The notes under the pieces are model-generated. The model was not told where the DNA came from and did no database searches. It worked only from the letters and a program-made list of their open reading frames with translations. A DNA stretch of 24,000 nucleotides, taken from Candidatus Saccharimonadales bacterium. GTDB lineage: Bacteria; Patescibacteriota; Saccharimonadia; Saccharimonadales; EFPC-124. Each line of letters begins with the position of its first letter. The stretch's first letter is position 1. Location of the stretch: the NCBI GenBank assembly GCA_035710125.1, contig DASTDY010000070.1, positions 4,198 to 28,197 of the forward strand, read 5' to 3'. Positions 4,852 to 23,763 of this stretch are shown here, in pieces. Made by a program: the position numbers and the translations under genes.

Positions 4852-5356
4852 ATGCACTCGAGGATACGGAGGACGCTGCTAGCTGCAGCGTTGGTGATAT
4901 TCATCTCCGCAAGTCTGGCAGCAACTCCCGCTCAGGCAGCAGATGGCTGTTATGGCGACTACTGTTCCGGACGCGATCCGTCAAACTACCGGTGTAGGCA
5001 ATGTCCCATGTGCTAACGACGCCAAGTCCGTGATGCACGCAGATTTGGAGGTATATCGACCCGACTACCCGGGCGCCGTCACCGGCTCCTGGGTGAAGGT
5101 CGGCGACCTTGACCTGCGATGGTCGCCTCGGTGTCAAACCAACTGGGCCAGGGCAAGCATGTTTGCAGACACCACAATGATCGCGGCGAGCGTCACCCAA
5201 AGCACTGGCTACACGATGCGCCGTCAGACCAATGGCTGGTGGGGCGGTTCATCATCAGGTGTCTACTGGACGAACATGATTTACTCGCCAGTGGCCGCCT
5301 GCAGGGCCTGGGTTGAGGGTGGCTCGTTCCGCACAAGTTCGACCGGCTGGAGATAG
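4852..5356 (+). pseudogene. frameshifted gene for a secreted DUF2690-like protein (high-GC island C)
   Basis: ATG at 4852 with AAAGGAAG upstream encodes a signal peptide (MHSRIRRTLLAAALVIFISASLAATPAQA) followed by DGCYGDYCSGRDPSNYRC, then stops at 5014. The rest (CANDAKSV...LDLRWSPRCQTNWAR...) continues in the +1 frame (ORF 4943..5356). The two Cys codons that fit the same motif position (4993 and 5009) are 16 nt apart. Confidence 0.6.
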
Positions 5357-12112: not shown

Positions 12113-12354
12113 GGCTAAGGATCGTAACGCGCCACGACTGGTGGGACGATACCTTTTAAGAACCAGTCTTTGCGTTTGGCTCACCCACCGGTTTTGATTC
12201 GGGCGATCCCCGTTACGATCGACAGTGAATTTTCTTTAATACGCTTCCACACATAAATATGATACCAAACTAAATTAACAGTTGTTGGCATGCATGCAGC
12301 ATTTTGGGCAAGATGGCCACATATAATGCCAGAAGTGACGTTCTTTAGAAACAC

Positions 12355-12383
12355 TTGACTTCTTATACGAAATATTATATGAT
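12355..12383 (+). promoter_or_regulatory. sigma70-like promoter of cassette D
   Basis: TTGACT (12355-12360), 17-nt spacer ending AAATATTA, TATGAT (12378-12383). The -35 and the spacer 3' half are identical to the cassette E promoter. Confidence 0.55.
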
Positions 12384-12415
12384 TTAATTTAGTCTGCAAG
12401 GTAAAAACCAGCAAG

Positions 12416-12430
12416 ACAAGCACCCTGCGT
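12416..12430 (+). promoter_or_regulatory. 5'-leader box of cassette D (ACAAGCACCCTGC shared with E)
   Basis: GCACCCTGCGT (12420-12430) is the exact reverse complement of ACGCAGGGTGC (12921-12931), which lies just 5' of hammerhead 1. The 13-nt ACAAGCACCCTGC recurs at 13098-13110. Confidence 0.6.
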
Positions 12431-12460: not shown

Positions 12461-12883
12461 ATGAACTTCTTCGCCAAGATCGCCCAGCGTTTCACCAGCA
12501 AGAAGACCGCGGCCACCGTGTTGCACATCTTCTGCACGATCCGTTCGATGCAGACGAAGGTTGGCGGCATGCTGCACTACGCGCTGGAGAGCACCACCCC
12601 CGCCTTGTTCTGGCCGACCAGCCACACCAACCCCGCAATGGGGTTCACGGTGTGGTCCACGCCGGACCTGCACGGGTTCACCATGGACGTCGCCATCTCT
12701 TGCCCCAACCGATTGGTGCGCGCCGCGACGGAGAGAGTCCTTCGGCAGAGCCCCTACCTGGCTCCTGGCTCGCTGCAGAGCAACGGCACCACCATCTGGT
12801 GCACGTTCTCCAGCGGCTACGCCGAGCTGGCGGATCGCTACTACACCGTGCGATCCAACATGCTGGCGTACCGCCCCTCCTAG
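12461..12883 (+). CDS. hypothetical protein, high-GC cassette D (140 aa)
   Basis: ATG at 12461 with AAAGGA upstream. This is the only frame with a natural composition; the overlapping and antisense ORFs are Arg/Pro/Gly-rich. No family recognised. Confidence 0.65.
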   Translation: MNFFAKIAQRFTSKKTAATVLHIFCTIRSMQTKVGGMLHYALESTTPALFWPTSHTNPAMGFTVWSTPDLHGFTMDVAISCPNRLVRAATERVLRQSPYLAPGSLQSNGTTIWCTFSSGYAELADRYYTVRSNMLAYRPS

Positions 12884-12920
12884 TCGATTCTTGGCTTCCG
12901 CACTGCGCGGAGCCGGCGGG

Positions 12921-12933
12921 ACGCAGGGTGCGT
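12921..12933 (+). promoter_or_regulatory. GGG-loop hairpin occluding the hammerhead 1 stem III strand
   Basis: ACGCA-GGG-TGCGT. Its 3' arm overlaps the stem III 5' strand (12930-12937). The 14-nt ACGCAGGGTGCGTT is conserved in cassette E. Confidence 0.5.
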
Positions 12934-12988
12934 TTCGTCTATATCTTATAGATATACTGATGAGCTCTGATAGAGCGAAACGAAACGC
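12930..12988 (+). ncRNA. type III hammerhead ribozyme 1 (GUC cleavage after C12939)
   Basis: Stem III: GCGTTTCG (12930-12937) with CGAAACGC (12981-12988), plus A15.1:U16.1. GTC triplet at 12937-12939. Stem I: TATATCT (12940-12946), loop TAT, AGATATA (12950-12956). Core CTGATGA (12957-12963). Stem II: GCTCT, loop GAT, AGAGC (12964-12976) with the G10.1:C11.1 pair. GAAA (12977-12980). Confidence 0.85.
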
Positions 12989-13097: not shown

Positions 13098-13110
13098 ACA
13101 AGCACCCTGC
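13098..13110 (+). promoter_or_regulatory. 5'-leader box of cassette E (ACAAGCACCCTGC)
   Basis: GCACCCTGC (13102-13110) is the reverse complement of GCAGGGTGC (13644-13652) in front of hammerhead 2. Confidence 0.6.
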
Positions 13111-13129: not shown

Positions 13130-13600
13130 ATGGGATTCATCAGCAACTTCCGCGAGTGGCTCATCACCGACCACTTCCGCAAGGAGTTGGGCGTGGTAGG
13201 TATGGCTCTGGCGGCCATTCGCGGCCAGCAGCTGCGCTACCAGATGCGCTACGAGCTTGCGATTGCCAGCAACAAACCCGTTTACGAACCCAACGGCCCG
13301 AACTTCACCAGCACCGTCGACGTCGTCACGCCCCTGGGCACAGTCAACCTGACCGCGAACGCCGTCGGCAACGACCTGTCCAAGCTCTACCTGAGCGTGG
13401 GCTGCGGCAAGCGCCTGGCTGTGGAGCTGATCGAGGCAGCGCTCGCGGCGTCGGGCGAGGAGTTCACCCCCTTCGGAGTGGACGCGTTGGAGTTCCAGCG
13501 GGCCGAGGACTACAACGACCTCCTCTACCTGTTCACCTGCGAGATCAGCGGTGTCCCCGCACACCTGGAGGAGAGCTACCACAAGGCCTTCCCAGGCTGA
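13130..13600 (+). CDS. hypothetical protein, high-GC cassette E (156 aa)
   Basis: ATG at 13130 with GAGAGG (13119-13124) 5 nt upstream. Natural composition. No family recognised. Confidence 0.65.
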   Translation: MGFISNFREWLITDHFRKELGVVGMALAAIRGQQLRYQMRYELAIASNKPVYEPNGPNFTSTVDVVTPLGTVNLTANAVGNDLSKLYLSVGCGKRLAVELIEAALAASGEEFTPFGVDALEFQRAEDYNDLLYLFTCEISGVPAHLEESYHKAFPG

Positions 13601-13638
13601 CCTCCAACACATTCGACAGTGTCTTCGGGCACAGTCGG

Positions 13639-13657
13639 GCGAACGCAGGGTGCGTTC
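13639..13657 (+). promoter_or_regulatory. GGG-loop hairpin occluding the hammerhead 2 stem III strand
   Basis: Perfect 8-bp stem, CGAACGCA (13639-13646), loop GGG, TGCGTTCG (13650-13657). It sequesters all of GTTCG (13653-13657), which the ribozyme stem III needs. Confidence 0.55.
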
Positions 13658-13706
13658 GTCTATATCTATTAAGGTATACTGATGAGCCCTGTTAGGGCGA
13701 AACGAA
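13653..13706 (+). ncRNA. type III hammerhead ribozyme 2 (GUC cleavage after C13659)
   Basis: Stem III: GTTCG (13653-13657) with CGAAC (13702-13706), plus A:U. GTC triplet at 13657-13659. Stem I: TATATC, loop TATTAA, GGTATA (13660-13677). CTGATGA (13678-13684). Stem II: GCCCT, loop GTT, AGGGC (13685-13697). GAAA (13698-13701). Stem II carries a compensatory T:A to C:G change relative to ribozyme 1. Confidence 0.8.
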
Positions 13707-13720
13707 CAAACGAAACATCT

Positions 13721-13778
13721 AAATAGGGTGGTTGTCTTTTTTTCGACTGTCTTAGAAGAAAAAAGACACCACCCTATT
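13721..13778 (+). repeat. conserved-apex long hairpin, copy 1
   Basis: AATAG (13721-13725) pairs with CTATT (13774-13778). The middle stem GGTGGTTGTC pairs with GACACCACC (one bulged T). The apex TTTTTCGACTGTCTTAGAAGAAAAA is identical to copy 2. A possible outer extension is CATCTA (13715-13720) with TAGATG (13784-13789). Confidence 0.65.
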
Positions 13779-13808
13779 TTGCTTAGATGTTTACTCAAAT
13801 AATCCTTA

Positions 13809-13836
13809 TTGACTTTCACTCACGATAGTATAATAT
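13809..13836 (+). promoter_or_regulatory. sigma70-like promoter of cassette F
   Basis: TTGACT (13809-13814). The -10 is ambiguous within TAGTATAATATATAAT (for example TAATAT at 13831-13836 with a 16-nt spacer). Confidence 0.4.
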
Positions 13837-13909
13837 ATAATAACCCCTTAGCGATCATTTCCGCTCTGGGCTTTACGTATCCCCGTTTCTGAATCAGGAG
13901 GCACTGCGA

Positions 13910-14326
13910 ATGATCGCAGCTTGCAGAACACAGATCACGGCCCTCGGCGAGAAAGTTTTGGCCTTCATCGGCGCGCCCGACTGCACCACCAACGACACCG
14001 CGTGGTTCGGCACCTTCGGCGTCGAGCTCGGGCTGCTGCCCGAAGCCAAAGACGACAGCGTGCGCATCACCTGCGCGGTGACGTTCGCGGAGGCCGACGA
14101 CGACCTCATGGACGCCGTCACGACCTCGCTGCACGACCTCGGCATGGTCAAGACCGACGAGGACCTCGCGGCGCGGCACCTCAAGTTCGAGATGCCGACC
14201 GAGATCTGGCGCAAGTACGCGGCCGACTGCGGTCAGATCGACCTGACCTCGCCGGCTACGATCACCCCGATCGGCGCGCCCACGACGTCGCACGGCCTCG
14301 ACCTGGCCCTCGCGACCACGGCCTGA
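13910..14326 (+). CDS. hypothetical acidic protein, high-GC cassette F (138 aa)
   Basis: ATG at 13910 with AGGAGG 8 nt upstream. Natural composition, unlike the overlapping Arg-rich frame 13921..14424. Confidence 0.65.
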   Translation: MIAACRTQITALGEKVLAFIGAPDCTTNDTAWFGTFGVELGLLPEAKDDSVRITCAVTFAEADDDLMDAVTTSLHDLGMVKTDEDLAARHLKFEMPTEIWRKYAADCGQIDLTSPATITPIGAPTTSHGLDLALATTA

Positions 14327-14344
14327 CCTGCTTCACCCGCCGGC

Positions 14345-14386
14345 GGCCCCACGCCCTGTCAACTCCTCCCGCGAGGGCGTGCGGCC
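14345..14386 (+). terminator. GC-rich hairpin after cassette F (no U-tract)
   Basis: CACGCCCT (14350-14357) pairs with AGGGCGTG (14374-14381), extended by GGCC with GGCC. A second small hairpin, GGGGG-TACG-CCCCC, lies at 14405-14418. Confidence 0.45.
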
Positions 14387-14446
14387 GCCACCCATGCAAG
14401 AAACGGGGGTACGCCCCCACCTAGACTTATATGCTATATTATTTAT

Positions 14447-14722
14447 ATGGATAGCGCTTCACACAAAACATCACCAGTCGTTGTATATAGCAGCCCCACC
14501 TGTGGTTTTTGCCACATGGCTATGGATTACCTTTCTGAAAAGGGCGTAGATTTTATAGAAAAAGACATCAGCACCGACCAAGAAGCCTTACGCTATGTAC
14601 TAGAGAAGGTCGGCCAGGCAGTCACTCCAATTATCACTATTGGCGACCAAAATATTGTTGGCTTTGACCGTGCAAAAATAGACGAAGCATTAAAACAGCT
14701 CAACCCACACGCGGCCGCCTAA
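14447..14722 (+). CDS. glutaredoxin-like thioredoxin-fold protein
   Basis: 91 aa. VVVYSSPTCGFCHMAMDYL (a CxxC active site after beta1), with TPIITIGDQNIVGFD typical of the Grx/NrdH fold. Confidence 0.85.
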   Translation: MDSASHKTSPVVVYSSPTCGFCHMAMDYLSEKGVDFIEKDISTDQEALRYVLEKVGQAVTPIITIGDQNIVGFDRAKIDEALKQLNPHAAA

Positions 14723-15292
14723 ATGGCATTTGAAGATTTTAAAACCAAGCCCAGTGTCGTTATTGTATACACTGGCGAAAGCAAGGGAAAAACCAGCGCC
14801 AGCATTGGCCTTATGTGCCGGGCTTTAGGGCGCGGCTGGCGGGTGGCCTATATCCAATTTATAAAAGACTGGGAAGTAGGGGAGCATACGTTTATCCGCA
14901 CTATCGAGCCCCTCTTTGAAGACCGTCTCACCTTTTACAAGGGGGGGAAGGGGTTTTTTAATGCCGGCAGTATCAGCGCAAAAGATGTGACGCCCGCCCA
15001 GCATCGCGAGGCGGCTAAAGCCACCTTTGACTTCGCCCAAAAATGTATAACGTCCGGAAACTACGACCTTGTGGTTTGCGACGAAATCAACAATGCCGTG
15101 GCCGACGGTCTTTTAACGGCCAAAAACCTAGCCTCATTACTACAAACCCGCGCCCCACACACCAGCGTGTGCGTGACCGGCCGGAATTTCCCAGAAGAGC
15201 TGCTGCCGCTGGCAGATATTGCAACCAACATGGCCAAGATAAAACACCATTTCGACGACAAATTTCTTGCCAACAAAGGCATAGACTACTAA
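14723..15292 (+). CDS. cobO: cob(I)yrinic acid a,c-diamide adenosyltransferase family protein (CobO/BtuR-type)
   Basis: P-loop-like YTGESKGKTSASIGLMCRALGRGWRVAYIQFIK, with VCDEINNAV and VTGRNFPEEL. The start abuts the grx stop. Confidence 0.8.
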   Translation: MAFEDFKTKPSVVIVYTGESKGKTSASIGLMCRALGRGWRVAYIQFIKDWEVGEHTFIRTIEPLFEDRLTFYKGGKGFFNAGSISAKDVTPAQHREAAKATFDFAQKCITSGNYDLVVCDEINNAVADGLLTAKNLASLLQTRAPHTSVCVTGRNFPEELLPLADIATNMAKIKHHFDDKFLANKGIDY

Positions 15293-15335
15293 AAAACCGC
15301 CAAGTTGCAGCGGCTGATGTTTTGCGAAAGTATGT

Positions 15336-15379
15336 GCCTGCGGCACCCCAACCCGAAAATCGGGTGGAGTGCCGCAGGC
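15336..15379 (-). terminator. long GC-rich hairpin downstream of island G
   Basis: GCCTGCGGCAC (15336-15346) pairs with GTGCCGCAGGC (15369-15379). Inner ACCCG pairs with CGGGT. It lies between the convergent cobO and G; there is no clear U-tract. Confidence 0.5.
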
Positions 15380-15385
15380 GGCCGT

Positions 15386-15649
15386 TCAGACGACGTAAGC
15401 GCCAGTGCGGGCGTCGCTGATCGAGGACTCAAAGTGCCCCCAGTCGCGCAGCTTCTGGAGCACCTGGCCCACGGTGTAGCTGCTGACGTTCTCCGGCGCG
15501 AAGAACACCACCGTCACAGGACCACTCCCGCTGTGCGCCTTGATGCCGGCGATGCCCAGCAACGAACCATGAAAGCCACCCTTGTCCAGGCAGACGGTCA
15601 TCTGCTCGTGGCCGGTGCCGGCTTCGTAGCCCCACGAAACGCTTCCCAT
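15386..15649 (-). CDS. hypothetical protein, high-GC island G (87 aa)
   Basis: ATG at 15649 with AGGGG 5 nt upstream. The ORF-track TTG at 15682 is less likely. Confidence 0.55.
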   Translation of the reverse strand: MGSVSWGYEAGTGHEQMTVCLDKGGFHGSLLGIAGIKAHSGSGPVTVVFFAPENVSSYTVGQVLQKLRDWGHFESSISDARTGAYVV

Positions 15650-15687
15650 TTGTACCCCTGTCGCTCGTGCTGACTTTGACAAATGTT

Positions 15688-15717
15688 ATGCTATCACACC
15701 ATTTACAATTTTGTAAA
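15688..15717 (-). promoter_or_regulatory. candidate promoter of island G
   Basis: Read on the minus strand: TTTACA (15712-15717), 18-nt spacer, TGaTAGCAT extended -10 (hexamer at 15688-15693). Confidence 0.35.
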
Positions 15718-15729
15718 GTGTGCTACCAT
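15702..15729 (+). promoter_or_regulatory. candidate promoter of island H
   Basis: TTTACA (15702-15707), 16-nt spacer, TGcTACCAT extended -10 (15721-15729). Its -35 and the G -35 are the two arms of TTTACA-N4-TGTAAA. Confidence 0.4.
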
Positions 15730-15784
15730 ATACATCTACCCTGTGTAGGTAGTTTGTTGTCCGTTGTTTTGGAGAGGAACGCAA

Positions 15785-16213
15785 ATGTGTGAAGCGCGGC
15801 GCATCATGGTCACGCCCACCGGCATCGTGCAGGACACGCCCGCACCCCAACCGCAAGCGCAGGGGACGGACGCGCATCCGCCTACCGACCAGCAGGTGTT
15901 GCTGGCCGCCGACAAGCTGGCCGGCATCGAGCTGCTGGTGTCCAACTGCGTGGGCGGCGTCGATTCGACCACTGGAGCCAAGGTGTTACAACCGCTCGAG
16001 GGTGCCGACATCGGCCTGACCGTGCTGGTGGCAGCGAACGCCGAGGCGCCCGACGGCATCGACGTGGAGTTCTTCCGCATCGAGCCGTTGGCAGCCGACC
16101 CCCGCCTGCAGTACTTGGCGTACGACCCGTACGACGAGGTGTGGTTCTTGACCTGCGGCGGCTCGCTGTGCACCAGCACGTCCGAGAGCGAGCTGGTGGG
16201 CGCACCCGCTTAA
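15785..16213 (+). CDS. hypothetical protein, high-GC island H (142 aa)
   Basis: ATG at 15785 with GGAGAGG (15771-15777). A Pro/Gln-rich N-terminal segment precedes a structured-looking C-terminal part. Confidence 0.65.
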   Translation: MCEARRIMVTPTGIVQDTPAPQPQAQGTDAHPPTDQQVLLAADKLAGIELLVSNCVGGVDSTTGAKVLQPLEGADIGLTVLVAANAEAPDGIDVEFFRIEPLAADPRLQYLAYDPYDEVWFLTCGGSLCTSTSESELVGAPA

Positions 16214-16243
16214 TCGGGCCAGACGCCGATTCAAGACATGCAA

Positions 16244-16290
16244 CAAAAGCCCTGCTGGCACACCATGCGCGTACCAGCAGGGCTTTTTGC
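16244..16290 (+). terminator. intrinsic terminator of island H
   Basis: 11-bp stem, AGCCCTGCTGG (16248-16258) with CCAGCAGGGCT (16274-16284). Flanked by AAAA upstream and TTTTTGCTTTTT downstream. Confidence 0.75.
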
Positions 16291-16406
16291 TTTTTAAAAC
16301 TCTTGCTATAATTTTGGTGGGGAGTGAGTGCTTTTTTAGTGCTCCTCTCCACCAGCTGCTTTTAGAGCAGTTTTTATTTTTGTTCACCTTAGCTAAAAGA
16401 CCACGT

Positions 16407-16473
16407 AATAGCGGCAGGTATGTTCCATTTTTCGACTGTCTTAGAAGAAAAATGGAACATACCTGCCGCTATT
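16407..16473 (+). repeat. conserved-apex long hairpin, copy 2
   Basis: Perfect 26-bp stem (16407-16432 with 16448-16473) and a 15-nt loop, CGACTGTCTTAGAAG. The base AATAG/CTATT and the apex TTTTT-loop-AAAAA are identical to copy 1; the middle 16 bp are unrelated but fully complementary. Confidence 0.7.
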
Positions 16474-16500
16474 GCAATCAACCTGACCATACAGTACCAT
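16472..16500 (+). promoter_or_regulatory. candidate promoter of the thermonuclease gene (near-leaderless)
   Basis: TTGCAA (16472-16477), 17-nt spacer, TACCAT (16495-16500). 9 nt to the ATG at 16510. The -35 overlaps the last 2 nt of hairpin copy 2. Confidence 0.4.
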
Positions 16501-16509
16501 TTAATCGCC

Positions 16510-17073
16510 ATGACCCGACGCCGAGCTATATCTACAACAATCTCATTGCTAATCGCCATAGTGGCAATTATTATTGCCAGCTACCAGTATCCGCCGACCA
16601 CCCCCGCCACACCGGCTACCCAACCTGGATTTTACCGTGTTACAAAAATTAGCGACGGCGACACTATAACAGTAGATATGAACGGCACGGCCGAAACCAT
16701 CCGCCTAATCGGGGTAGATACGCCAGAGACACACAAACCAAATACACCCGTACAATGTTTTGGACAACAAGCGAGTGATTTTACCGCCAAAACGCTCACC
16801 AACACTAGTGTACGGCTCGAGGCCGACCCAACAAACGACAACCGCGACCGCTATGGCCGCCTACTGCGTTACGTGTACACCCAAGATGACACGCTGTTTA
16901 ATAAAATATTAGTAGAGCAGGGGTACGGGTTTGCGTACCTCAGTTTTCCATTTGAGAAAAAGGCTGAATTTTCTGATGCCCAGGCGATGGCGCAATCAGC
17001 CGGTAGCGGCCTCTGGAGCGCCTGCGGCACTATCAAATCGAGTACAGGACCGTGGCAAACAGTCACAAAATAA
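16510..17073 (+). CDS. membrane-anchored thermonuclease (SNase/micrococcal nuclease family)
   Basis: N-terminal anchor MTRRRAISTTISLLIAIVAIIIASY. SNase motifs: DGDTITV, IRLIGVDTPE, DRYGRLLRYVY, LVEQGYG. The start at 16510 is chosen because the upstream extension would translate the palindrome. Confidence 0.85.
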   Translation: MTRRRAISTTISLLIAIVAIIIASYQYPPTTPATPATQPGFYRVTKISDGDTITVDMNGTAETIRLIGVDTPETHKPNTPVQCFGQQASDFTAKTLTNTSVRLEADPTNDNRDRYGRLLRYVYTQDDTLFNKILVEQGYGFAYLSFPFEKKAEFSDAQAMAQSAGSGLWSACGTIKSSTGPWQTVTK

Positions 17074-18512: not shown

Positions 18513-19232
18513 GTGGACACCGAGCAATTGCTGATTGATGTCCGCAACACCGTGCTGGCGCAGCTCAGGCCTCTGAGCGCATTCGGCGTGTACGCCATCG
18601 GCTTCAACCCGAGCCGCGTGCAGGACCGTGAAAGCGGAAACGGGAAGTTCGGCATGAACTTCGTAATCTACGCCGGATCGGAGCTGTACACCCACCTGAA
18701 CAAGCGCGGCAACCACTGCGTGTACCCCGAACGCCTGCTGTTGATCTACCGCACATTGGCGGAGGTGCTCAAGCCCTTCACCGACAGCGGCCGACTGCAC
18801 TTCATGGCGAACGAGGCCATGCTGATGGCAACTCTCCCCGAGTTCATGTGGGAGTCGGCCGGCGTAGTACTGGACGACGACCTGGTTCGGGTGCCCCAGA
18901 GCAACATCTGGGACATCTGGGACCGCGCGCTGGCCGAAGGCTGGCTGGCGGACCGCACCAACTCAGAGCTCGACCCCTGGGGCCGCGTGCTCAACAACGC
19001 ACCCCTGTTCACCGCCGAGAACCCTGACCACAACGCGTGGGCAAGCTTCTCGGTCCTGCCCTACGACTCGAAAGAGCCGCGGACAGAAGAGGCGATGGGC
19101 ATGGCTGCTCTGACCCACATCGGTTGGAACTTCCTCGGAGAGACCGAACCTCACGAGCTCCAAGAGATCGCCGAGAAGCTGCTCAGCGACTCGGTGTTCC
19201 TCAGGCAGCACAACTGCTGGGTCTTTCTCTGA
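18513..19232 (+). CDS. hypothetical protein, high-GC island I (239 aa)
   Basis: GTG at 18513 with AAGGAG (18502-18507) 5 nt upstream. Trp/Asp-rich with a natural composition. No family recognised. Confidence 0.7.
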   Translation: MDTEQLLIDVRNTVLAQLRPLSAFGVYAIGFNPSRVQDRESGNGKFGMNFVIYAGSELYTHLNKRGNHCVYPERLLLIYRTLAEVLKPFTDSGRLHFMANEAMLMATLPEFMWESAGVVLDDDLVRVPQSNIWDIWDRALAEGWLADRTNSELDPWGRVLNNAPLFTAENPDHNAWASFSVLPYDSKEPRTEEAMGMAALTHIGWNFLGETEPHELQEIAEKLLSDSVFLRQHNCWVFL

Positions 19233-21580: not shown

Positions 21581-22297
21581 CTAGCCACGTGGCAGGCAAC
21601 CTGCAGCTCCTTGCCACCACTCGCTGAGCGGTCGCTGGAGCAGGGGCCAGCCATTGCTGATATGCACGCAAATCGTGTCTGGACGGGGCATCGTGTTGTC
21701 GAGCACCACGCACACCACCCAACCCACAATGCCGCCGAGCGCCACCAGACGCATCACCATATGCCAGGCTCGCCACGGGGCTTCAACCAAGGCAGGCAAC
21801 ACCAGGGCGAACAGCGCGTAGCCGTACGTAGGCAGGATCAGCGTGTGATACACCTTGGTGGGGCTAAAAAACGCCCCCCAGGTCATGATGTTCGACTGTC
21901 CCTGCATTGAGTAGGTGACAATGGCCTCAGGGATTGTCAGGCCCAACAGGCACGCCACACCAAAGCCGACTGCCAACCAACGGAACCAGCGACGCTGATA
22001 CCACTGGTTCTCGCCGTGGAGCTCTTTGGCCAGCATGCTGGCCGCAAACCAGGTGAATCCCAAAAGCAGATCACCAGGCAAGAGTCCCAGGTACTGTTGG
22101 CTCAGGTTGACCGATCGACCCTCGACAAGCAACGCCAGAGCCAACAGGCCAACCGGAGTCGCCAACCAACCTATGTAGGGCTGGATTTTCGAGGAGTCAA
22201 AGGTCCAACGCAAGCCAGGGACAATCCGCAGTTGAATCCTCGGAAAGTCAAAAGCCCAACGAAGGCCAGGGACAATCCGCAGCTGCTGCGCCAACAT
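21581..22297 (-). CDS. polytopic membrane protein, high-GC island J (238 aa), paralog of K
   Basis: ATG at 22297 with AAGAGG upstream. It aligns with K across the E(N/G)R..S.QY.GL..GD, WYQ..W...GxGVA and SPT..(V/Y)HT blocks. The N-terminus carries a 17-aa tandem duplication. Confidence 0.65.
   Translation of the reverse strand: MLAQQLRIVPGLRWAFDFPRIQLRIVPGLRWTFDSSKIQPYIGWLATPVGLLALALLVEGRSVNLSQQYLGLLPGDLLLGFTWFAASMLAKELHGENQWYQRRWFRWLAVGFGVACLLGLTIPEAIVTYSMQGQSNIMTWGAFFSPTKVYHTLILPTYGYALFALVLPALVEAPWRAWHMVMRLVALGGIVGWVVCVVLDNTMPRPDTICVHISNGWPLLQRPLSEWWQGAAGCLPRG
22196..22282 (-). repeat. 51-bp tandem repeat (about 1.7 copies) inside the 5' end of J
   Basis: GTCAAAGGTCCAACGCAAGCCAGGGACAATCCGCAG (22196-22231) and GTCAAAAGCCCAACGAAGGCCAGGGACAATCCGCAG (22247-22282). 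The 51-nt period encodes LRIVPGLRW(A/T)FD..(R/K)IQ twice. Confidence 0.8.
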
Positions 22298-22353
22298 CTG
22301 GCACCTCTTTCGGATCGAACGAACACTTCTTCCGTAACGGAATAGCAAAAAAG

Positions 22354-22362
22354 ATTATAACA
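22354..22362 (-). promoter_or_regulatory. extended -10 promoter element of island J
   Basis: Minus-strand TGtTATAAT, 56 nt upstream of the ATG. No good -35. Confidence 0.4.
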
Positions 22363-22384
22363 TAATTGTCTTCAAAAAGCGAAT

Positions 22385-22426
22385 AGCCGCCCGCTCTCCC
22401 ACTGGTGTAGTGGGGAGCGGACGGCT
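22385..22426 (-). terminator. intrinsic terminator of island K
   Basis: Imperfect ~14-bp GC-rich stem (AGCCGCCCGCTCTCC with GGGGAGCGGACGGCT on the plus strand). On the minus strand it is followed by ATTCGCTTTTT. Confidence 0.65.
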
Positions 22427-22442
22427 TATCCGACCTTGAGAG

Positions 22443-23708
22443 TTACTTCTTGACCCAGGGCGGGTCAACCCAGCCAGCCGGCTTGGAGTTCTCGTTGCCC
22501 TGGGTGGGCGCCGAGGTCTCCTCGCCGGTCATCCACGGCGGCAGCGGCAGGCTCGACTGCGGCTGCACGATGTGAGGCTGGGTGCCGGTGTCGACCGGCT
22601 GCCTGTCGGCGATCCACGGGGGGACAGCCAACGGGCGGTTCTGCGGTGCGACGGACGGCTGGTCGGGTCCACGCCCGAAAGTCGGACGCTGGACGCCGCC
22701 ATCGAACGGAAGCGGTTTCACGAGCACCTCGCCGTCCTGCTGACGGACACGCACGACCTGAGTCGCATCGGAGTCGCGCTTGCTGTCGTCCACCACGCAC
22801 TCCGGCTTGGCTTTCACGAACGTCTGCTTCTTCGGCACCCAACGGGCGTGGCTGAAGCTGTTGTAGTACTTGTACCACTTCCAGACGAACAGCTTGTCAC
22901 GCTTGCCCGCAACCAGCAGACCCAGGAACACCTGAAGCTTGGGGAGCCACCCGTTGTAGGGGTGTACCAGGCTCAGGTCGACCTTGCGGCCACCGTTGCC
23001 TGCCTTGTAGTCCTTGCGTTCCTTGTTGTCCTTGATCACGGAGTTGACGAACCAGACGAACAGGCCGACTGCCATGACGCAGATCAGCTGAGCCGCCAGC
23101 ACCTTCTTGCCGACGCTGTAGTCGCCCAGAATGCCGTGCGTCAGTTCCACCGTCGTTGCCGACACGATGACCACCGTGAGGTAGGTCACCAGGAGGATCA
23201 GTGCGGTGTGCACCAGCGAGGTAGGGCTGAGCTGCTGACCGATGGTGTAGACACCCTCGTCGTTCAGCGACTTCCGCTTGGCCCACCTCATGGTGTGGTT
23301 CTTCGGACGACCCCACGCCCACGTGCGGGCCAGGGTGAAGAAGATCTCCGTTCCCTTGAGCAGCAACATCAACGCGACGCCGAGGCCCCAGCCGATGTTG
23401 TGCAGCCACGCCTCCTGGTACCACATGCCAGTTGTGTCCGGCAGGAGGATGAGGGTGGCGATGGTTCCCGCGGTGAGGGCGATGCCCACGCCGATGTCAC
23501 CGTACTTCAGTCCCTTGTACTGCGCGCTGTAGGGGATCCAGCGGTTCTCCAGGAGGAGTCCCGTGGTCCACATGAGCACGAAGGTGTAGATGAAGCCGGC
23601 GAACAGGGTGGTGAACGGCGTTGTCCACGTTGGCCAGATCTCGTAGAAGAATCTCGCCCACGGGTACAGGTTCAGCTTGTCGGGAAACGACGTGACGTCG
23701 ATGTTCAT
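22443..23708 (-). CDS. polytopic membrane protein with Pro-rich C-terminal tail, high-GC island K (421 aa)
   Basis: ATG at 23708 (MNIDVTSFPDK) with GAGAGG upstream. About 6 hydrophobic spans. The C-terminal ~130 aa are Pro/Gln-rich, with three PPW motifs (VPPWIAD, LPPWMTG, DPPWVKK). Confidence 0.65.
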   Translation of the reverse strand: MNIDVTSFPDKLNLYPWARFFYEIWPTWTTPFTTLFAGFIYTFVLMWTTGLLLENRWIPYSAQYKGLKYGDIGVGIALTAGTIATLILLPDTTGMWYQEAWLHNIGWGLGVALMLLLKGTEIFFTLARTWAWGRPKNHTMRWAKRKSLNDEGVYTIGQQLSPTSLVHTALILLVTYLTVVIVSATTVELTHGILGDYSVGKKVLAAQLICVMAVGLFVWFVNSVIKDNKERKDYKAGNGGRKVDLSLVHPYNGWLPKLQVFLGLLVAGKRDKLFVWKWYKYYNSFSHARWVPKKQTFVKAKPECVVDDSKRDSDATQVVRVRQQDGEVLVKPLPFDGGVQRPTFGRGPDQPSVAPQNRPLAVPPWIADRQPVDTGTQPHIVQPQSSLPLPPWMTGEETSAPTQGNENSKPAGWVDPPWVKK

Positions 23709-23763
23709 GTGCACCTCTCGGGAAAAATGGTCGGATGGTGCGCCAGGCGGCGACACCAACATT

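Follow-up and report, generated by a model that had tools for sequence, protein, structure and literature searches.

Interspersed palindromes of bacterial genomes (REP, attC, Correia, and similar elements) normally hold their arms or their foot constant while the tip varies. Here, we describe a family of intergenic hairpins in which this arrangement is reversed: every copy shares one unchanging tip, and the arms are exchanged as a whole and yet stay complementary, even at one orthologous site of sister strains. Two copies lie in a 24,000-nt stretch (hereafter, the window, meaning this whole stretch) of the chromosome of a Saccharimonadales bacterium, a soil Saccharibacteria genome, and a third lies in a sister strain at the site orthologous to that of the second. 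Judged by comparison with described systems, these hairpins are closest in logic to REP/RAYT, attC, and single-strand-origin hairpins and a member of none of them.

The REP/BIME palindromes and the SMAG elements, with their RAYT proteins of the HUH/Y1 type, resemble the hairpins described here in that they are short intergenic hairpin DNA elements, often near gene ends, that are recognized as folded single strands. The GTAG-like foot on the 5′ side of REP/SMAG elements may also have a counterpart, GTAG in the sister strain (contig L042) and ATAG in both window copies; no RAYT/Y1 transposase is present in the window. Copies of REP share their stem sequence and are many per genome, whereas here the arms differ from copy to copy, the copies are far fewer, and the helix is longer and perfect. 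We rejected membership in the REP/RAYT elements, SMAG included, because the three sets of arms are mutually unrelated and no further copy was found in 596 kb of related DNA. Integron attC sites are likewise folded single-strand sites that keep their structure while the sequence differs, are found among small gene cassettes, and can differ between strains at the same array position. However, attC sites keep the foot (the R″/R′ boxes with GTTRRRY) and vary the apex, whereas the hairpins here do the reverse, and neither a core nor an integrase is in view.

Single-strand origins and promoters of rolling-circle and conjugative plasmids, such as ssoA with its recombination site B (RSB) and loop motif and the Frpo-type elements, are long imperfect hairpins that work only as folded single-stranded DNA, carry short conserved motifs on divergent stems, and depend on orientation, and in all this they are like the present hairpins. 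ssoA forms a large secondary structure when single-stranded, is recognized by RNA polymerase, and is not reversible in orientation (PMC5703833). The hairpins here differ in that they are chromosomal (among ATP synthase, glutaredoxin, and nuclease genes), are without Rep or relaxase, and have no sequence similarity to such origins. Membership among the plasmid single-strand origins was rejected on the chromosomal context and because a search of 72,556 plasmids and 50,697 phages gave no similarity beyond chance (none below E = 2).

Quasipalindrome hotspots of template switching are a mechanism rather than a family, a process that can also extend a palindrome or flip the spacer within it. In E. 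coli, it is established that inverted repeats are made perfect or more perfect by template switching with the nascent strand as template (PMC7202029). Hotspots of this kind would explain strictly Watson–Crick arms, two-sided changes, and a flipped loop, but neither an identical 25-nt apex at several sites nor a constant helix length. Finally, RiboJ-type parts are engineered ribozyme-plus-hairpin insulators. The likeness to these parts and to RNase III hairpins is that copy 1 follows a type III hammerhead and that a 27-bp duplex would be cleavable by RNase III if transcribed; the differences are that here ribozyme and hairpin stand after a gene and before the next promoter rather than in a 5′ leader, that copy 2 has no ribozyme, and that there is no wobble pairing. 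Our literature search found no report linking Saccharibacteria with hammerheads or with such hairpins.

Anatomy of the two hairpins

The hairpins and their constant parts are as follows.

13713–13791, + strand: hairpin copy 1 at full extent, from the fold and covariance model R1
13739–13763, + strand: constant apex of copy 1, TTTTT CGACTGTCTTAGAAG AAAAA
16407–16473, + strand: hairpin copy 2, a perfect 27-bp helix (AATAGCGGCAGGTATGTTCCATTTTTC and its complement) with the 13-nt loop GACTGTCTTAGAA
16428–16452, + strand: constant apex of copy 2

The window contains two exact copies of the 25-nt apex TTTTTCGACTGTCTTAGAAGAAAAA, at 13739–13763 and 16428–16452 on the same strand. The identity of the apex in the two copies, first proposed in an initial annotation of this DNA, is thus exact at 2/2 sites; a third match is lacking in the window at up to 3 mismatches, with 0 expected by chance. 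The layout common to the copies is T4–7, C, GACTGTCTTAGAA, G, A4–6, i.e. a loop clamped by A/T pairs. The middle segments of the arms are unrelated between the copies and each pairs with its own partner, as had been described.

Copy 2 consists of arms at 16407–16433 and 16447–16473 that form a perfect 27-nt inverted repeat around 13 nt, and its predicted RNA fold has an energy of −52.5 kcal/mol (z = −14). Its helix had been reported as perfect and 26 bp long; it is perfect, and its length is 27 bp. Copy 1 is imperfect. Its inner helix, ATAGGGTGG(T)TGTC paired with GACACCACCCTAT and followed by a T7/A6 clamp and the loop, has a single bulged T in the left arm, and T7 faces A6; as RNA, this inner hairpin folds with −28.2 kcal/mol (z = −6.5). 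Beyond a 5-nt bulge in the right arm, an outer helix, ACATCTAA/TTAGATGT, continues past AATAG/CTATT, so that the whole fold (13713–13791) comprises ~28–30 bp with −35.9 kcal/mol (z = −7.5). Because this outer helix extends copy 1, AATAG/CTATT is not its foot.

The identical base AATAG...CTATT assigned to both copies is shared by the window copies, but it is not the foot of copy 1 and is replaced by GTAG...CTAC in the sister strain. The feet are ATAG/CTAT and AATAG/CTATT in the window copies and GTAG/CTAC in the sister strain, i.e. the foot is conserved only loosely as RTAG/CTAY, with the wider pattern TAA-RTAG ... CTAY-(T)GC in three copies. Helix length is constant at 27, 27, and 28–30 bp. 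Other long hairpins in the window and in the sister contigs are just the GC-rich terminators of island genes, and no second loop type was detected among them.

A third copy and the distribution of the family

The sister strain is represented by contigs L042 (SRR7186533) and L043 (SRR7186536), which were assembled independently from two samples; its backbone is ~93% identical to the window at a synonymous divergence (dS) of 0.26–0.46. It carries a third copy (L042 118–184 = L043 296–362, identical in the two contigs) at the site orthologous to copy 2, with a small-RNA-like element on one side and the nuclease promoter on the other. Its sequence is GTAGAGCCCAACACTGTAGCGTTTTC-CGACTGTCTTAGAAG-GAAAACGCCACAGTGTTGGGCTCTAC. 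The loop is identical to that of the window copies at 15/15 positions, the closing clamp differs from them by one compensated pair, and the helix is 27 bp long with one A·C, whereas its arms bear no relation to the arms of copy 2. The same loop on wholly different arms makes this a genuine family, neither a chance pair nor a simple duplicated repeat.

We built the covariance model R1 from copy 2 and the L042 copy. R1 recovers copy 1 with 48.6 bits (E 1e-9). Together with a fuzzy loop search, it gave no copies beyond the known ones in ~596 kb of DNA from Saccharibacteria loci. The apex 19-mer has no exact match in 185,579 species-representative genomes or in IMG/VR and a single match in JGI metagenomes, which is without a hairpin and was taken as chance. 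The orthologue of copy 1 was not recovered, as the sister contigs break in the hammerhead repeat (L041) or begin inside gene F (L054).

In relatives with a 67–75% identical nuclease, the small-RNA-like element and the nuclease promoter are kept, the hairpin is absent, and there is almost no spacer. Because these more distant relatives keep the small RNA and the promoter without the hairpin, we regard the hairpin as a gain in one narrow lineage.

The hairpins match no known RNA family, in agreement with the initial annotation: their best matches in Rfam (release 15) are models of microRNA (miRNA) precursors, with 22–27 bits against thresholds of 70–140. A scan of the whole window with Rfam returned two sub-threshold hammerheads and nothing else. 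Two other identities were considered and dismissed. The ends of IS200/IS605 elements (or palindrome-associated transposable elements, PATE) do not fit because the arms are unrelated, the intervening 2.7 kb are syntenic backbone (glutaredoxin, CobA) shared with the sister strains, and TnpA and TnpB are lacking. Readings of the apex as an operator or as a dif, parS, IHF, LexA, or sigma-54 site were compared by eye, and none fits.

Arm turnover at the orthologous site

The behavior of the arms is seen most directly where copy 2 and its L042 orthologue occupy the same spacer, downstream of an element that offers a comparison with an RNA helix.

16313–16375, + strand: small-RNA-like minihelix with its terminator, immediately 5′ of copy 2
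16376–16471, no strand: hypervariable spacer holding copy 2, apart from the apex the sole stretch not properly alignable between window and sister strain

With the two hairpins anchored at the loop, 15–16 of the 27 pairs differ on both sides and 0 on one side only, and 98% of the cells are paired. This pattern of two-sided change was reached by 0/500 shuffles, and all slid controls collapse. Arm against arm, copy 2 and its orthologue have no similarity (p = 0.89). The 96-nt spacer of copy 2 is 64% identical in a gap-permissive alignment, compared to 76–96% for 8 other intergenic stretches, and ~25 of the 61 identities in this alignment come from the apex; once the hairpins are removed, the spacers align no better than shuffles (113/500). 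Across the three copies, the hypervariable arms are strictly Watson–Crick paired (81/82 pairs, with no G·U on the + strand and one A·C), and the single mismatch, in L042, is A·C on the + strand and G·U on the − strand. Because gradual compensation cannot randomize 21 pairs at a dS of 0.26–0.46, we conclude that the arms were replaced en bloc with complementarity kept.

The small-RNA-like element consists of a terminator and a 15-bp minihelix, GGUGGGGAGUGAG...CUCCUCUCCACCA, that ends in CCACCA. It is conserved across Saccharimonadales, has no match in Rfam, and also occurs at L042 41–98, L044 52–110, L045 400–463, and L046 529–590, directly upstream of the leaderless nuclease gene. The minihelix, ~60 nt from copy 2, shows an invariant G·U and several one-sided GC/GU changes in the 5 genomes, the pattern that RNA-level selection usually leaves. 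Because the hairpin arms are strictly Watson–Crick and change on both sides, unlike this nearby RNA helix with its wobble pairs, their complementarity may well have been made at the DNA level; the arm pattern points to DNA-templated palindromes, which it fits better than it fits RNA compensation. The covariation had initially been taken to argue for a selected structure. The structure is indeed non-random, but the step from there to a selected RNA fails in view of the strict Watson–Crick pairing, the wholesale replacement, and a possible inversion of the loop.

As to where the arms came from, inverted copies of flanking DNA are an unsupported source: the hint in a global alignment (p ~0.008, uncorrected for 7 tests) was not borne out by the cleaner local test, of arms against the non-arm spacer of the other strain, which was null (p = 0.43–0.91).

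Hypervariable arms on a constant loop and a constant helix length are also what diversifying selection on a specificity segment would be expected to produce, and the hairpins might then be guides similar to short hairpin RNAs or miRNA precursors, directed by their arms against phage, host, or self sequences. We consider such guides very improbable. The miRNA precursors that are the sole similarities in Rfam lie far below threshold and reflect the generic hairpin shape. With up to 3 mismatches allowed, neither the window nor 590 kb of related loci contain a match to any arm, and matches in IMG/VR are exact 17–19-mers without extension, at a frequency that is about chance by a rough estimate from an assumed database size. 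Moreover, the window holds no Argonaute, Cas, or Dicer-like gene, and the hairpins have no promoter of their own. The idea, put forward initially, that the variable middle is a guide or specificity segment thus finds no target in the DNA searched.

A possible loop inversion in a near-identical strain

Two further contigs, L040 and L057 from sample SRR31678429, represent a near-identical strain; L040 is 99.86% identical to the window. Contig L057 starts inside copy 2 (L057 1–58, corresponding to window 16417–16473). Its arms are those of copy 2 save for bases at the contig tip, but its loop is the reverse complement (CTTCTAGACAGTCG), with 1 base deleted in addition and one T-to-C change in the clamp. 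Consistently, R1 scores 53.2 bits on the − strand of L057 and 32.6 bits on its + strand. The remaining 1,843 nt of L057 differ from the window at 4 positions (99.8% identity). With 27-nt arms, k = 31, and no ambiguity in the assembly graph, reads with the inverted loop must exist. The inverted loop may be a flip/flop signature of hairpin-mediated DNA events or it may be an artefact, and we treat it as a lead.

Chimeric reads folded back at an inverted repeat can produce perfect palindromes, and the version with the inverted loop does sit at a contig tip, so that an assembly or sequencing artefact has to be weighed for the hairpins as a whole. However, four assemblies obtained independently, with different assemblers and from different samples, contain hairpins with the apex (the window's metagenome-assembled genome (MAG), L042, L043, and L057), by which this explanation is effectively refuted.

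A proposed lineage-restricted folded-DNA palindrome element

We tentatively favor, at less than even confidence, the reading that the hairpins are a lineage-restricted folded-DNA palindrome element, the loop of which is recognized by a trans-acting factor and the arms of which are made and replaced at the DNA level. Specifically, arm complementarity would be created and maintained in DNA, one arm being copied from the other by intrastrand template switching of the fold-back or quasipalindrome type; alternatively, the element could be inserted as a ready-made hairpin. The constant loop would be read by the trans-acting factor on the extruded or single-stranded hairpin, following the logic of REP, attC, and single-strand-origin hairpins, and the element would insert or turn over in the spacer between an upstream RNA 3′-end module (a hammerhead, or a terminator plus small RNA) and the promoter that follows. 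Were transcripts to run through the element, the 27-bp duplex would be a substrate of RNase III, severing the upstream transcript from the downstream gene, probably as a side effect. In all of this, DNA-level templating, loop recognition, and insertional behavior are what we infer from the pattern.

Several points weigh against this reading. Pfam scans of the window open reading frames (ORFs) found no HUH/Y1 transposase, RAYT, tyrosine recombinase, or Rep. With 3–4 copies known and no two sharing arms, there is no direct evidence for copy-and-paste, and target-site duplications are absent. The test for arms taken from flanking DNA gave the mixed p values cited above. The inverted loop of L057 lies at a contig tip with extra errors and is possibly a library artefact. 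The 15/15 identity of the loop at dS ~0.4 equally fits purifying selection on an RNA loop, and the orientation of the loop relative to the flanking genes is the same in 3/4 copies, as a strand-specific RNA function predicts.

Palindrome-associated template switching (PMC7202029) typically yields strictly Watson–Crick arms that differ wholesale between copies, indels like those in copy 1, and a loop inversion like the possible one in L057, and the element is confined to one lineage and absent in relatives. Accordingly, the hairpins could be a mutational by-product without a function of their own, in which a short mini-hairpin with A/T clamps, the apex, reached a few intergenic sites by duplication, grew there into a long palindrome by template switching during replication, and was tolerated as part of non-essential spacer. 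We hold this to be unlikely, as what needs a cause is an invariant 15-nt loop amid the most variable 100 nt of the locus, a constant helix length (27–30 bp in all copies), and the recurrence of one 25-nt apex at a second site 2.7 kb away, and the by-product leaves each of these unexplained. If template-switch mutagenesis around a bound site is nevertheless all that operates here, the hairpins would be a clean natural case in which perfect covariation among a few copies does not require selection on RNA, and a useful caution for covariation-based RNA discovery.

The folded-DNA element, in turn, has a more far-reaching form that we consider distinctly unlikely, namely a new system of hairpin-DNA transactions in an ultrasmall bacterium of the candidate phyla radiation (CPR), with an enzyme specific for the loop that would act on the extruded hairpin by nicking or resolution and in doing so would flip the loop and template the arms anew or swap them. 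If so, each site would carry a unique, fast-changing 20-bp duplex on a constant scaffold, as a novel self-propagating palindrome element or as a programmable device for specificity or diversification. A dedicated mechanism would amount to a new way to make or move DNA hairpins, in a group with almost unknown mobile-element biology.

Placement of the hairpins and alternative functions

The neighbors that bear on function are the following.

13653–13708, + strand: type III hammerhead 2, by the Rfam model (38 bits against a gathering score of 48.5; E 5e-7 in local search)
13809–13836, + strand: promoter-like site of island gene F, TTGACT-16-TAATAT, by consensus scan only
16472–16509, + strand: inferred nuclease promoter, TTGCAA-17-TACCAT, 9 nt to the ATG at 16510, read from the sequence and conserved in L042–L046

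Copy 1 had been placed 9 nt after hammerhead 2, which needs correction, as the Rfam match ends at 13708, leaving 12 nt to 13721 and 4 nt to the extended helix. The distance to the F promoter was right: the −35 TTGACT at 13809 lies 30 nt after 13778. Likewise, copy 2 does overlap the −35 of the nuclease promoter, the inferred TTGCAA (16472–16477) sharing the last 2 nt of the hairpin. The nuclease gene is leaderless and starts at 16510 (187 amino acids, matching its homologues), and the ATG inside the hairpin is not its start. Both window copies and the sister-strain orthologue have the coding-strand orientation of the flanking genes and stand between an RNA 3′-end module and the next promoter.

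By contrast, the placement at cassette boundaries that had been suggested is not general. Hairpins are present at only 2 of the ~10 borders of the GC-rich islands; island H is separated from copy 2 by a terminator and the conserved small-RNA-like element; and cassettes D and E both end in a terminator plus hammerhead of the same design, yet D is without a hairpin.

This placement bears foremost on the possibility that the hairpins function as RNA. Read-through from upstream would produce a hairpin serving as an RNase III site, a roadblock, or an insulator between the upstream cassette and the promoter that follows, and the 15-nt loop (with a YUNR-type CUUA) would bind a lineage-specific protein or RNA. 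The shared coding-strand position between 3′-end module and promoter, the 15/15 loop identity across strains at dS ~0.4, the very stable folds (z −6.5 to −14), and the position of copy 1 directly after a hammerhead, resembling the engineered ribozyme-plus-hairpin insulators, all speak for such a function, and we regard it as possible, though rather unlikely. Unlike the adjacent RNA helix, the hairpins lack G·U on the + strand (0/82 pairs) as well as one-sided changes, and the one mismatch in L042 is A·C on the + strand and a G·U only on the − strand. En-bloc replacement of arms requires a DNA mechanism in any case, a loop inversion as possibly seen in L057 would destroy a strand-specific loop, and cassette D lacks the hairpin despite the same hammerhead design. 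In addition, the consensus scan found no promoter-like site driving the hairpins. Copy 2 is followed by GCAAUC and the L042 copy by GCGGUUC, i.e. neither has a U-tract, and these are therefore not intrinsic terminators; that identity was rejected because the terminator scan calls neither window hairpin, there is no U-tract after copy 2 or the L042 copy, and the loop has 13–15 nt with A/T closing pairs.

The mosaic of small orphan genes around the hairpins, rich in G+C at third codon positions (GC3) and each with its own promoter and terminator, calls to mind an integron array, and an attC-like folded recombination site deserves consideration for the same reason. Here, the hairpin and a few tens of flanking nt would form an ORF-less mini-cassette, mobilized by a site-specific recombinase cutting at the RTAG/CTAY foot. 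Indeed, at one array position the hairpins of two strains differ in their arms and have immediate flanks that are not homologous, as in integron arrays, and the foot is loosely conserved as TAA-RTAG ... CTAY-(T)GC in the three copies. We find this improbable. The core GTTRRRY/RYYYAAC is absent, as first noted: 0 of the 37 GTTRRRY matches in the window fall in 13713–13791 or 16407–16473. No integrase domain occurs in the window ORFs scanned, there are only 2 hairpins for ~10 islands, and attC conserves the foot and varies the apex, the opposite of what is seen here. Furthermore, the islands are syntenic and old, with G and I positionally conserved in distant relatives, and do not resemble shuffled cassettes. 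On the lack of a core, the lack of an integrase, and the number of hairpins, we rejected membership among the integron attC sites as well.

The surrounding locus

The backbone genes of the window, from Pfam scans, encode an AddA-like helicase-nuclease, the F1Fo ATP synthase operon, glutaredoxin, a corrinoid adenosyltransferase (CobA), a secreted staphylococcal-type nuclease, and glycosyltransferases. The nuclease neighborhood was matched only in MAGs of Saccharibacteria/Saccharimonadales, and proteins E and F have 100% identical entries in a Candidatus Saccharimonadales MAG. The window is a mosaic, with a backbone of 50% GC and islands of 62–70% GC. Because independent Logan contigs from another sample (L040 and L057) match the window at 99.3–99.9% identity, this mosaic is not an assembly chimera. 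The related DNA consisted of the ~596 kb of Saccharibacteria loci for the copy searches and of the window plus 590 kb of related loci for the scan for arm targets.

The island ORFs lie at 247–714, 846–1232, 4943–5356, 12461–12883, 13130–13600, 13910–14326, 15386–15649 (−), 15785–16213, 18513–19232, and 21581–23762 (−). Two classes of codon usage coexist in this one genome, with GC3 of 0.68–0.92 in the small orphan genes and 0.45–0.60 in the backbone, and each orphan island gene has its own A/T-rich promoter and G+C-rich terminator. The orphan genes evolve fast (ratio of nonsynonymous to synonymous divergence, dN/dS, ~0.55 for D and E). Genes G and I have positional homologues at 30–41% amino acid identity in distant relatives, most of them with raised GC3 (0.75–0.90) and one G-like gene (in L046) at the backbone level of 0.58. 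Because these distant positional homologues mostly keep a raised GC3, the GC3 of the islands does not reflect recent horizontal transfer. The island proteins have no matches in Pfam, PHROGs, PADLOC, or NCBIfam, and among 5.8 billion proteins E has one homologue and F none. The surrounding locus may be the larger story, with orphan genes of GC3 near 0.9 in a genome of 50% GC, carrying their own promoters and, in some cases, a terminator-plus-hammerhead module.

In this module, each of the two type III hammerheads (12915–12986 and 13637–13708) overlaps a terminator-like hairpin, the 3′ arm of which doubles as the 5′ strand of stem III and leads into a U-rich tail. Whether a transcript is terminated or cleaved by the ribozyme (after GUC), nearly the same hairpin-protected mRNA 3′ end would result, so that the arrangement looks like a fail-safe 3′-end module. 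The module is conserved in the sister strain. A 9-mer, GCACCCTGC, is present in the 5′ untranslated regions of cassettes D and E (12420–12428 and 13102–13110, + strand), and its exact complement lies just 5′ of each hammerhead (12923–12931 and 13645–13653), giving 4 matches against 0.3 expected. With the 9-mer and its complement at opposite cassette ends, each cassette mRNA could have its 5′ and 3′ ends base-paired.

The content of the locus also differs between strains. In a third strain (L056 1–160; ERZ27339557, coverage ~2), a G+C-rich fragment stands in place of the island F ORF and meets the window sequence at the stop codon and terminator of F (window ~14312); judged by eye from its translation, the fragment reads like the N-terminal part of glucose-6-phosphate isomerase. 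This replacement may reflect swapping of cassette content or an assembly chimera. At window ~12214, ~560 bp are missing in comparison with L041 5138–5701, where the sister strain has part of a 232-amino-acid DUF6766 gene beside the ATP synthase operon; the remnant in the window is an ORF of 80 amino acids at 12181–12423 (−). Finally, a 51-nt tandem duplication with 78% identity lies at 22182–22283 inside the G+C-rich, membrane-protein-like ORF J, which is weakly related to ORF K.

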